The notes beneath the pieces were generated by a model. It made no database searches, was not told the origin of the DNA, and worked only from the letters and a program-made list of their open reading frames with translations. Source: a virus (taxonomy: Duplodnaviria > Caudoviricetes). From it: DNA of 64,000 nucleotides. The stretch covers positions 96,001-160,000 of IMG/VR virus record IMGVR_UViG_3300031555_003442. The stretch is one strand, 5' to 3'. The position numbers and the translations under genes are program-made. Below, in pieces: positions 61,339 through 64,000 of the stretch; the stretch's first letter is position 1, and every line of letters starts with the position of its first letter.

Positions 61339-61710
61339 TCATCGTTTTGATTGCTTGACTCGATTCAGCAGTGCGGGAAGGCCACCCATGACGGGGATTC
61401 CAGTTCCGCCTAATCCGAGGTAGACGTATTTCATTTTGCCGTCATATTCCTTGCGAATCAGTGCGATGGGATGGATTCCCTGCGGGTTGCAATAGAACAC
61501 CCTTGCGAACTGTACTGAACCGCTCATTACCATCGTGTTCGCAAACTTGATTGCATCGTCGGCCTTCGTAAAGTATAGGGCCTTGTGGCCTTCCATAACG
61601 AACTGGGTCTTTTCTTCCGTCGTTTCCTTTCCGACGAACCCGTTTTTCGTGTTGATGTAGTAGGTTCTCAACTTGTCCAGGTCTGCTGCCTTAATTTCGT
61701 TCGGGTTCAT
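61339..61710 (-). CDS. hypothetical protein
   Basis: GAGGGG RBS. Confidence 0.7.
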   Translation of the reverse strand: MNPNEIKAADLDKLRTYYINTKNGFVGKETTEEKTQFVMEGHKALYFTKADDAIKFANTMVMSGSVQFARVFYCNPQGIHPIALIRKEYDGKMKYVYLGLGGTGIPVMGGLPALLNRVKQSKR

Positions 61711-61711
61711 A

Positions 61712-61981
61712 CTACCCCTCGTAATTCATCATTAGATACTGGATTAGGTCTTCAAATGACCAGTAGAACGTAACATCCTGCGGTTTTGCAGAATAGTCGT
61801 GCTTTACGACCTCGTAGCTGTCTTCGCTGTGCGGATAGACAAGAATCCACAAGTCATTGTAGAGAAGCACCTTGATATACGCACCGTTTACCGAGTTCGA
61901 GTGGTATTCGAACGTGAAATCCGTCGGGTACAGTTTGTCGAATAGCCGTTTAAGGCTGCAATCGTTACTTTCGTTAGCCAT
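61712..61981 (-). CDS. hypothetical protein
   Basis: GAGG RBS after promoter. Confidence 0.65.
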   Translation of the reverse strand: MANESNDCSLKRLFDKLYPTDFTFEYHSNSVNGAYIKVLLYNDLWILVYPHSEDSYEVVKHDYSAKPQDVTFYWSFEDLIQYLMMNYEG

Positions 61982-62002
61982 TTCGCACCTCTTTTTGGTA
62001 AA

Positions 62003-62031
62003 AATATAGCATAAAATCCAATTCCTGTCAA
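62003..62031 (-). promoter_or_regulatory. sigma70-type (early) promoter
   Basis: TTGACA-N17-TATATT. Confidence 0.75.
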
Positions 62032-62067
62032 CTCTGGTAAAAATAACGCTTATTTTGCCAAATTCCC

Positions 62068-62096
62068 TTGACGATACTTAGATAAATATGTATATT
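62068..62096 (+). promoter_or_regulatory. sigma70-type (early) promoter
   Basis: TTGACG-N17-TATATT. Confidence 0.7.
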
Positions 62097-62133
62097 TCTA
62101 TCGTCAAACCAAACAATAAATGGAGGATTCCTC

Positions 62134-62247
62134 ATGAAAAAGAAAATAATTGCCGCACTCATCTACATCGCAACTGCAGTCGTTGTCGTATTAATTGAAC
62201 GTAAGGCAAAAAACTTTGTTGTCGAAGTCTGTTCTGAAAAGGATTAA
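62134..62247 (+). CDS. 37-aa membrane peptide, not in ORF track
   Basis: GGAGG RBS; MKKKIIAALIYIATAVVVVLIERKAKNFVVEVCSEKD*. Confidence 0.6.
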   Translation: MKKKIIAALIYIATAVVVVLIERKAKNFVVEVCSEKD

Positions 62248-62267
62248 AATACACGAACTATAATCAA

Positions 62268-63563
62268 CTATGCAAAAGTGTATATAGAATAGCACTTTTT
62301 GATATAGTTCTTGCTGAAGACTGCGTTCTGGACATAGTCCCTAAGCAGGAAGCGGTATTTCAGTCCCGTTTCTTTGATTTTTGAGAATAGTGCTTTCCAG
62401 TCATCCACCGAACCGAGTGTTTGCTTCCATTGCTCATCTCGAAACTGTACATTGAATCTTGGATAGAACCATCCCTTATAGAATTTCTTGTATGCTCTGC
62501 GAGCAATCTCTATGCTGGCAGCAACCATATCTGGCGTAGTCTCGTTGCCGTATGAGAAGTTGCCCACGATTGACGAATATGCCGGGTTTACCTCGACCAA
62601 TTCATACTTATGCAGGTTGGCAAGCATCTTCAGCTTGTTCACAAACAACCGTCGTTCCCATTTGTTGTTGCACAGCTTATTGAGCTTCTTGCCTTTCTTC
62701 ATGTCCTTCGGCTTGATTGTCAGGTCCTCGATAGCAACAGTCTTGCACTTCCATACATCCACCAGCTTGCTTATTTCATGCGCTATCGCAAGAGTCTCGT
62801 GCCTTAACTTGTTCGTAATGTACTTGGAACTGGAATCTGTGCTTGATTTTCCCGAAGAAATCGTCAGTTTGCACAAATCGAATACCTGCTTGTGCAGTAC
62901 CTTGAAGTCGTCATTCTTATTGAACTCTATCACGGACACCCCGATATAATTCGGGTTCATGTCTATTCCCAATACACGTCTGGTTTGCAATGCTTTGTAC
63001 TCGGCATCGTAGATAAGACTCTCTTCGTATGTAAGCCACACATATTTGTCGGACATCTTGACGGTAACGGTTATCTTGTTATTTTCCGCAAGTTCCTGCA
63101 CCTTGGAAAGTTCAGCGGAAATCTTCTTCCTCATCGGAAGGAACTTGATTTCTACGTGCCTTTCTTTATTCGGCTTGTATATAAGCCGTTGATTGTCGAG
63201 GTCGAACGAGAACAATCGGTTTCCCTTGCGTAGTTTCTCGCCCTGGATTCCGATAGGGAACGTACGGCGATACTTGAACGTTGCCTTGTCTATCAAGCCA
63301 CGCATATACTGCCGTAGGTTGTTCTTTCCACCAAACAGGATATGCTTGTTACCATTCAGCTTGTACAGTGCTGCCGCTTCCTTTATAGCGGATTGGATGA
63401 ACCCGCTGTTGTGGTCGAATCTTGCATTGCAGTAGGCACGGACTTCCTTCTCTTCCAGTCCGTCTTGGAAACGGTTAAAAGCAACTCGGACGATACTGCT
63501 GAACATCCGCATGTCATTCAGTACATCCACCTCGTTGCATATCGTAAGTTTAACCGTCTTCAT
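62268..63563 (-). CDS. TnpB-related RuvC nuclease (IS200/IS605 accessory TnpB-like), no Zn finger
   Basis: RuvC-I VLGIDMNP, RuvC-II AIEDL, VNPAYSS and RuvC-III PDMVAASIEIARR. Confidence 0.85.
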   Translation of the reverse strand: MKTVKLTICNEVDVLNDMRMFSSIVRVAFNRFQDGLEEKEVRAYCNARFDHNSGFIQSAIKEAAALYKLNGNKHILFGGKNNLRQYMRGLIDKATFKYRRTFPIGIQGEKLRKGNRLFSFDLDNQRLIYKPNKERHVEIKFLPMRKKISAELSKVQELAENNKITVTVKMSDKYVWLTYEESLIYDAEYKALQTRRVLGIDMNPNYIGVSVIEFNKNDDFKVLHKQVFDLCKLTISSGKSSTDSSSKYITNKLRHETLAIAHEISKLVDVWKCKTVAIEDLTIKPKDMKKGKKLNKLCNNKWERRLFVNKLKMLANLHKYELVEVNPAYSSIVGNFSYGNETTPDMVAASIEIARRAYKKFYKGWFYPRFNVQFRDEQWKQTLGSVDDWKALFSKIKETGLKYRFLLRDYVQNAVFSKNYIKKCYSIYTFA

Positions 63564-63662
63564 AATCAAAAATCCTATTCAGAAGGTCGAGTTCCGAATA
63601 GGATAGAGCAGCATTGCTGCCGTCAAAAATCTATTAATGTAAGGAATCTCGACCATTCCCTA
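63564..63662 (-). ncRNA. putative structured RNA / leader with kissing loops
   Basis: Three hairpins; loops GGUCGAG and CUCGACC are exact reverse complements. Confidence 0.6.
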
Positions 63663-63667
63663 TCATA

Positions 63668-63675
63668 AGTTTATA
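63668..63675 (-). promoter_or_regulatory. putative late promoter box TATAAACT
   Basis: Immediately upstream of the structured RNA. Confidence 0.6.
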
Positions 63676-63724
63676 TATTTATAACTACAAATCATAAACC
63701 GTTTGCTGTTTTTTTGTTATTTTC

Positions 63725-63753
63725 TTGACAAACTACGGAAACTATACTATATT
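63725..63753 (+). promoter_or_regulatory. sigma70-type (early) promoter
   Basis: TTGACA-N17-TATATT. Confidence 0.75.
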
Positions 63754-63790
63754 TGTTAATAGAATTCAATAATTTTCTATAAAATCGAGT

Positions 63791-63843
63791 TAACATTTTT
63801 CTGATTCTAACATTTCGAAATGTTAATATCAAGAAAAATGTTA
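63791..63843. repeat. nested inverted repeat built from four TAACATTT boxes
   Basis: Outer arms TAACATTTTTCT / AGAAAAATGTTA; inner perfect palindrome TAACATTTCGAAATGTTA. Confidence 0.75.
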
Positions 63844-63871
63844 GTAAACGAAAATTTACGTTTGGTGTTTT

Positions 63872-64000
63872 ATGTCGAGTAAACCTATTATTTCATTTCG
63901 TATTGAAAACGAGCAGCAGGATGGGATTACCACGCTCGATGCCATTGCATCTGGGTTTCTACTTGTTGTTGCATACGTTGTTATAACCTGTGCGTTGAGC
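63872..64000 (+). CDS. hypothetical membrane protein, 3'-truncated by window edge
   Basis: MSSKPIISFRIENEQQDGITTLDAIASGFLLVVAYVVITCALS... Confidence 0.5.
   Translation, partial: MSSKPIISFRIENEQQDGITTLDAIASGFLLVVAYVVITCALS

Follow-up and report, generated by a model that had tools for sequence, protein, structure and literature searches.

Selfish nuclease genes of a group of gut and rumen jumbo phages are preceded by a structured leader RNA of about 95 to 100 nucleotides (nt), in which the loop of a promoter-proximal hairpin (H1) is the exact reverse complement of the loop of a second hairpin (H3) lying next to the start codon. The two loops covary among relatives, the structure is specific to the sense strand, the base of H3 pairs a conserved Shine-Dalgarno motif with its complement, and the leader is associated with mobile nuclease genes, among which it has been exchanged as a module. 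With moderate confidence, we propose that it acts in cis as an expression gate on these genes, combining attenuation with Shine-Dalgarno sequestration and locked by the kissing contact between the loops.

The leader was analyzed in a stretch of 64,000 nt (the window), which covers positions 96001 to 160000 of a 177.8-kb source record. CheckV estimated this record to be 42% complete, and because a record of such length represents less than half of the genome, the virus is a jumbo phage. The contigs that carry close relatives of the gene behind the leader reach 473 kb, and some of them were binned with Prevotella or Bacteroidaceae. No match to the locus was obtained by megablast in the phage collection. 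The features of the locus, in window coordinates, were as follows.

63771..63788, minus strand: approximate left border of the mobile unit (TCGATTTTATAGAAAA...), where homology between units in different contexts starts.
63769-63741, minus strand: predicted sigma-70-like promoter P1, TTGAAT-17-TATAGT, from a consensus scan and conserved in other unit copies.
63675-63668, minus strand: phage promoter-like box TATAAACT, read in the sequence and conserved in leaders.
63659-63643, minus strand: H1, GGAAU[GGUCGAG]AUUCC, loop at 63654-63648 (sequence, fold, alignment A5, and RNAalifold).
63621-63607, minus strand: H2, GGCAGC-AAU-GCUGCU, a spacer hairpin (sequence, alignment, and RNAalifold).
63604-63572, minus strand: H3, 13 bp, AUCCUAUUCGGAA[CUCGACC]UUCUGAAUAGGAU, loop at 63591-63585 (sequence, alignment, and terminator-like scan).
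63576-63573, minus strand: Shine-Dalgarno-like AGGA in the 3' arm of H3, paired to UCCU (sequence and alignment).
63571-63564, minus strand: U tract and spacer UUUUGAUU, from H3 to the AUG (sequence and terminator-like scan).
63563, minus strand: AUG of the 431-aa open reading frame (ORF) (sequence).
62268..63563, minus strand: gene for a 431-aa TnpB/Cas12f-like RuvC nuclease without a zinc finger (Pfam PF27229 SSO2105_N and predicted fold).
62245..62440, minus strand: covarying structure that runs from the last part of the ORF into the 23-nt right end (...UUGUAUUUUA) (compensatory changes).

Every element named in the original prediction (three hairpins, box, and ATG) was found on the minus strand as described. 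The kissing-loop structure itself is real: the H1 loop (GGUCGAG) and the H3 loop (CUCGACC) are exact complements and the loop helix was 100% paired in both of our alignments. One detail needs correction: five U residues do follow AGGA, but the first of them forms the last pair of H3, so that the unpaired run is UUUU rather than UUUUU. The RNA fold of the leader had a z-score of -3.75, and none of 200 shuffled sequences folded as well. H1, H2, and H3 were all predicted independently by RNAalifold. In our register, 70% of the H2 cells were paired in alignment A5, and RNAalifold preferred a GGCA/UGCC register; in class B, one of the other leader classes, 5 of 6 H2 pairs covaried (alignment A6). 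A single-stranded linker, RGUUU(A/G), is conserved on the 5' side of H2 in all leader classes.

The box TATAAACT occurs nine times in the window (1.3 copies expected). At the leader locus, it lies 104 nt from the ATG, and H1 starts 8 to 9 nt past it (5 to 9 nt past the promoter box across copies); for the other eight boxes, the distance to the ATG was 25 to 32 nt, mostly 27 nt. These measurements agree with the contrast of about 105 versus about 28 nt noted originally, and the extra sequence of about 77 nt upstream of the TnpB-like gene does consist of the structure. The box had been labeled a late promoter, a label for which we found no support: searches with PHROGs and Pfam recognized no structural-protein families among the box-bearing genes. 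A strong sigma-70-like match (TTGACA-17-TATATT, 11/12) was also observed on the plus strand at window positions 63725-63753, in the left part of the unit and directed away from it.

Comparison of related leaders indicates that the loop pairing is under selection. About 35 distinct leaders on related jumbo-phage contigs contained 16 distinct loop codes (twelve 7-mers and four 9-mers), all perfectly Watson-Crick complementary. Loci of the closest orthologues, which were retrieved by protein alone and not by the RNA pattern, had all three hairpins and carried GGACGAG/CUCGUCC, GAGCGAG/CUCGCUC, GGGCAAG/CUUGCCC, and CUGGUCC/GGACCAG where the window has GGUCGAG/CUCGACC. In alignments A5 (17 sequences) and A6 (10 sequences) taken together, 189 of 189 cells of the kissing helix were Watson-Crick pairs. 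Compensatory changes between the loops, for which the original prediction proposed a test, were observed across these relatives, with two-sided changes at 4 of the 7 pairs in A5 and 3 of the 7 pairs in A6.

Control searches gave a consistent picture. Some 50 nt upstream of the H3 stem pattern, which was searched with a free loop in viral contigs, the loop recurred as its exact reverse complement in 13 of 13 phage-type contigs, and none of 10 chance matches to the pattern (nine in unrelated prokaryotic genomes and one in giant-virus contig L147) had such a partner. L147, the 14th viral-contig match, belongs to a giant virus and was counted among the controls. Our own detector called kisses of at least 7 in a single one of 200 shuffled leaders, compared with 12 of 59 distinct upstream regions of the gene family. 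Because the loops change together in relatives, chance matches have no partner, and shuffled sequences rarely kiss, we regard the leader as more than a chance arrangement. Further copies were found in whole phage records with two covariance models (R1 and R2) and the same detector. Both models are blind to the diverged leaders with 9-nt loops, among them the second copy in the window's phage, and this class was identified by inspection and with the detector. Loops evolve about 3 times faster than stems. Diversifying selection on the loops was considered and dropped, since loop divergence (0.20) was below synonymous divergence (0.44). No consistent third partner site for the loops was detected in 27 loci, each searched over the gene itself, 1.5 kb on its 5' side, and about 2 kb on its 3' side.

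The structure belongs to the sense strand, i.e., to RNA, because G-U pairs occur on that strand only (at two adjacent H3 stem positions in 12 of the 17 sequences of A5) and the stems are much shorter when read as antisense. The upper stem of H3 covaries, and the UCCU/AGGA base was invariant in all 27 sequences of A5 and A6. In the window, AGGA lies 9 nt 5' of the AUG and is paired with UCCU, which bears out the earlier statement that H3 buries this motif in a phage that uses such motifs. Shine-Dalgarno-like purine motifs preceded 55 of 81 predicted starts in the window (68%) versus 12 to 16 of 81 in control windows (15 to 20%). Bacteroidota rarely use Shine-Dalgarno motifs for their own genes; the window's phage is rich in them although its relatives were binned with Bacteroidota.

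The resemblance of H3 to a terminator, also proposed at the outset, held in a terminator-like scan, which H3 passed with 13 bp, 4 G-C pairs, a 7-nt loop, and the tail UUUUGAUU. In most copies (sense-strand rows), at least 5 U residues fall within the first 9 nt past H3, and the start codon follows 5 to 9 nt past the end of H3 in the same orientation. The U tract is weaker in the 9-nt-loop class (UUUCU and UUCUUUAUU). One leader (L179) has a free AAGGAG downstream of H3, and masking of the Shine-Dalgarno motif is therefore not the universal function. Neither an antiterminator nor an alternative conserved fold appeared in the predicted folds (a single fold, RNAalifold). By inspection, pairing between H1 and H3 was limited to the loop-loop helix, extendable to 11 bp in class B; an antiterminator alternative was dropped for this reason.

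The gene behind the window leader encodes a TnpB-like nuclease, as originally proposed, judging from its predicted structure. Foldseek comparisons of the predicted fold had Cas12f, TnpB, and Fanzor proteins as top matches (E values of 1.5e-9 to 1e-5, probability of 1.0). Two residues of the RuvC D-E-D triad (D201 and D345) are invariant, and the third (E279) is at least 90% conserved. A tblastn comparison with the ISCaje4 TnpB gave 32% identity. PF27229 (SSO2105_N), a precomputed assignment, is the sole Pfam family of the protein; searches of a local Pfam copy, including OrfB_IS605, gave no match, and the protein has no CxxC pair of the zinc-finger/TNB type. Profile searches against PDB sequences also had no match, so that a fold search was needed.

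The sequence context indicates that this gene is mobile rather than domesticated. Homology between units extends from about 225 to 237 nt upstream of the ATG to 21 to 29 nt past the stop codon, with none beyond, and delimits a unit of about 1.55 kb with sharp borders in at least 6 different contexts. Neighbors of the unit across these contexts include genes for a single-stranded DNA-binding protein (SSB), a glycosyltransferase, an EcoRI-type methylase, a TROVE protein, and a 2169-aa protein. About 125 nt separate the leader from the left border, which places it inside the unit. On pig-gut and rumen phage contigs (L123-L126 and L007/L051), orthologues 83% identical to the window protein are located 48 nt past a gene for a 208-aa serine recombinase (Pfam Resolvase), a pairing that represents an IS607-like layout. 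The sharp borders and this layout leave the description of the nuclease as domesticated unsupported. The unit also has a structure of its own at the 3' end of the gene, covering the last 170 nt or so of the ORF and the 23-nt right end, in which 8 of 38 predicted pairs show compensatory changes. One hairpin in it (GAAACGGGA...UACCGCUUC) switches between G-C and A-U pairs in 7 of 17 sequences, and a long-range stem (AGAACUAUA/UAUAGUUCU) crosses the stop codon. The structure lies at the site expected for an omega RNA and probably represents that of the zinc-finger-less TnpB family.

Leaders of this design are found in front of genes of several kinds: SSO2105-type TnpB, two canonical TnpB lineages, and NUMOD3/DUF559 endonuclease-like genes. 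The canonical TnpB genes with the leader belong to at least two lineages and encode OrfB_IS605 and Cas12f1-like TNB domains, and the homing-endonuclease-like genes encode NUMOD3, I-TevI zinc finger, and DUF559/MTES_1575 domains. One further leader-bearing gene encodes a 160-aa protein without known function. At one locus (L048), a window-type gene lies behind a class B leader, a class otherwise found on canonical TnpB genes, and this combination implies that the leader is exchanged as a module. The leader is also optional, since the recombinase-linked orthologues have the box, 28 nt, and the ATG without the structure, and kissing loops occur in only the 12 of 59 upstream regions mentioned above. 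Because three TnpB lineages and homing-endonuclease-like genes carry the design, and leader types have been swapped between families, the leader is an autonomous cis module and not a guide scaffold for one protein.

Several leaders may coexist in one genome, always with different loop codes: CTGGTCC, GGTCTGG, CTGGTAC, and TTGGCAGTC in G002, and GGTCGAG and GTGGAGTTC in G000. A second kissing leader of unrelated sequence was found in the window's phage, about 8.3 kb past the window end (L164:8300-8440, minus strand, equivalent to about 168.3 kb of G000:C1). It comprises a TATAAACT box and two hairpins, A with loop GUGGAGUUC and B, of 16 bp, with loop GAACUCCAC, and it precedes a canonical TnpB gene. 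Other loci displayed further arrangements. Two window-type units lie head to head at L046:719-854 (minus strand) and L046:1373-1508 (plus strand), with codes GGACGAG and GGGCAAG, respectively. A DUF559 and C2H2 endonuclease-like gene with a 9-nt kissing leader (L183; G001:C1 65721-68849) interrupts an array of phage tRNA genes that has at least 17 members. At G010:C1:78859-78957 (L198), a leader-like element with CCCGUAC/GUACGGG loops and a U8 tail is followed not by an ORF but by a stretch that is rich in G+C and possibly structured. Finally, paralogues 60 to 67% identical to the window protein (L010, L011, L013, L015, L021, and others) have, at positions -45 to -1, TTGACA, a variable perfect palindrome, GTATATTTA, 4 to 6 nt, and the ATG. 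The palindrome (e.g., ACTATG-ATAG-CATAGT) changes from copy to copy, and the arrangement is near-leaderless.

These observations can be combined into a model of the gate. Transcription would start just past the TATAAACT box (or, in some copies, past a sigma-70-like promoter), placing H1 at the extreme 5' end of the transcript, and H3 would form directly before the start codon. With AGGA paired to the upstream UCCU and a U tract behind it, H3 should end transcription in a large fraction of cases and keep ribosomes off the read-through transcripts. The 7-nt loop of H1 would dock on the 7-nt loop of H3, with all seven bases paired as in ColE1-type complexes, and thereby lock a compact closed fold. 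As a net effect, production of a potentially harmful nuclease would be limited to low-level leakage. We infer the transcription start, the termination, the translational repression, and the contribution of the kiss from the invariant base of H3, the use of Shine-Dalgarno motifs in the phage, the U tail, the short distance (5 to 9 nt) from H3 to the AUG, and the equally short distance from the box to H1. Some observations do not fit the model easily. A strong local hairpin alone would suffice to sequester or terminate, and the strict retention of the kiss is not explained by the model. In addition, the U tract of the 9-nt-loop class is weaker, AAGGAG is free in L179, and a conserved alternative fold, as for a switch, is missing from the predicted folds.

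Three functions had been suggested originally: an upstream guide scaffold, a discrete small RNA (sRNA), and an attenuator or translational switch. The last appears to fit best. The sRNA would be a stable molecule of about 95 nt that begins at the promoter, includes H1 and H2, and ends at the H3 terminator; the kiss would tie its two ends together, and the molecule would act in trans. In one form of this reading, the loop code would provide copy-specific control of coresident elements, as in ColE1 RNA I/RNA II or the c4 immunity of phages P1 and P7. The succession of a promoter-like box and a terminator-like H3, the different codes of all copies within one genome (and of the adjacent L046 units), and the fast evolution of the loops are consistent with an sRNA. 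We nevertheless consider it unlikely: a start codon of like orientation follows almost every copy at 5 to 9 nt, which would be unnecessary for an independent sRNA, and a Shine-Dalgarno-like motif is built into H3. Moreover, the loops diverge less than synonymous sites, with no sign of diversifying selection, and the 27 loci searched had no third complementary site. A regulated riboregulator is a rather improbable alternative. Here, the closed leader would be unfolded or cut at a defined moment, either by a phage or host factor that reads the kissing shape whatever the sequence, in the manner of Rop, or by a helicase or RNase, and the leader-bearing nuclease genes would form a regulon. Conservation of complementarity but not of loop sequence would be expected under such a regime, as would the occurrence of one architecture on unrelated genes and behind two promoter types, and the conserved RGUUU(A/G) linker before H2 could be a further part of it. 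The factor is hypothetical, however, and the predicted folds offer no conserved alternative. More broadly, it is doubtful, though conceivable, that the loop pair serves as an address code, with which either the terminated leader would act in trans on transcripts of its own element only (copy-specific control or incompatibility) or a phage protein would read the kissing shape and switch the nuclease set during infection.

That the leader is a guide-RNA scaffold, i.e., a 5'-placed omega RNA for the TnpB-like protein, is extremely unlikely. The leader does adjoin a TnpB-like gene with only 23 nt between its stop codon and the unit end, and IscB omega RNAs are encoded upstream of their gene. Nonetheless, homing-endonuclease-like genes and three TnpB lineages carry the leader and have swapped its types (as at L048), its position about 125 nt inside the left border implies that no flanking guide is available, a separate covarying structure occupies the usual 3' position, and some orthologues have no leader at all; this part of the original prediction is accordingly disfavored. 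A feature of the DNA without RNA function is very unlikely as well. The leader could consist of transposon-end hairpins or of a quasi-palindrome kept uniform by template switching, given that it is inside a mobile unit and that template switching might correct the interrupted inverted repeat (AA[loop]UU) made up of the two loops (L1 and L3) with their flanks. Yet the G-U pairs in the stems correspond to A-C mismatches on the other strand, where the hairpins are much shorter, the leader is not at the unit ends, and H1 keeps a fixed distance of 5 to 9 nt from the promoter box. A self-cleaving ribozyme or riboswitch was rejected on account of the absence of a conserved junction or core and of any Rfam match.

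An expression gate of the kind proposed would matter for several reasons. No selfish genes are more common in large phages than those for TnpB and homing endonucleases, the Cas12 genome editors descend from TnpB, and almost nothing is known about how the expression of such nucleases is controlled inside a phage. Covariation over 16 loop sequences establishes the loop-loop contact of this compact, modular leader. If the gate reading is correct, the leader would provide a transferable part for tight control of toxic nucleases, as well as a natural model of an intramolecular kissing contact that tunes a terminator or ribosome-binding site. The phage TnpB genes concerned are still mobile units with a guide RNA-like structure at their own 3' end, not domesticated ones.

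Comparisons with databases and literature revealed no earlier description of the leader. A search of window positions 61500-64000 against Rfam 15 (E value of ≤10) returned only four matches, each subthreshold and on the opposite strand, to families of snoRNA, miRNA, and lncRNA. At seven related loci with other leader classes (E value of ≤0.1), the matches were tRNAs and subthreshold Plastid-ycf2 and YrlA, all in the tRNA array of L183, and no leader family was among them; the novelty suggested originally thus withstood the Rfam check. Literature searches on TnpB in connection with kissing loops, with translation control by untranslated regions or stem-loops, and with jumbo phages found nothing relevant.

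Among known systems, leader hairpins regulate the homing-endonuclease genes of T-even phages (I-TevI, seg, and mob); likewise, IS200 tnpA has a Shine-Dalgarno stem-loop and a left-end terminator, and IS10 shows fold-back inhibition. In its proposed mode of action, our leader comes closest to these systems, with which it shares a selfish nuclease or transposase gene, a phage promoter box nearby, and a hairpin that buries the Shine-Dalgarno motif next to the start codon, presumably to keep expression low. By its paired motif close to the start, H3 qualifies as a Shine-Dalgarno-sequestering repressor hairpin, with L179 as the exception. The late promoter of the T4 homing-endonuclease leaders is inside the hairpin, so that late transcripts, which are devoid of the 5' arm, escape repression; in the window, by contrast, the box lies 63 nt upstream of H3, before all hairpins. 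We know of no T-even, IS200, or IS10 leader with a second hairpin whose loop covaries with that of the sequestering hairpin. Like intrinsic terminators and attenuators, the leader has a stem-loop of 12 to 14 bp followed by a U tract between promoter and ORF. Unlike attenuators, it has no competing antiterminator fold among those predicted, and its terminator loop is docked by an upstream hairpin, which, to our knowledge, is not a described feature of attenuators.

The leader resembles ColE1 RNA I/RNA II and P1/P7 c4 RNA in having fully complementary 7-nt loops, a sequence that is free as long as it remains complementary, and coresident copies with different codes. Those systems act between two RNAs (for c4, a processed RNA and the mRNA of its own operon), whereas both loops here are in a single leader of about 95 nt. 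Antisense transcripts are complementary by default, which the two loops of the leader are not, and Rfam C4 gave no match. TnpB omega RNAs (reRNAs) and IscB omega RNAs (HEARO) are likewise structured RNAs encoded beside the gene for an RNA-guided RuvC nuclease. TnpB omega RNAs, however, comprise the 3' end of tnpB and the right end and take the guide from the flank, while the leader is 5', inside the unit, and without an adjacent guide; unlike omega RNAs, it is neither specific to nor coinherited with one nuclease lineage, and it had no HEARO match. The leader is therefore a member of none of these classes (T-even and insertion sequence leaders, ColE1/c4 RNAs, or omega RNAs), and, matching no Rfam family and no description in the literature searched, it represents a new variation on a known regulatory theme.
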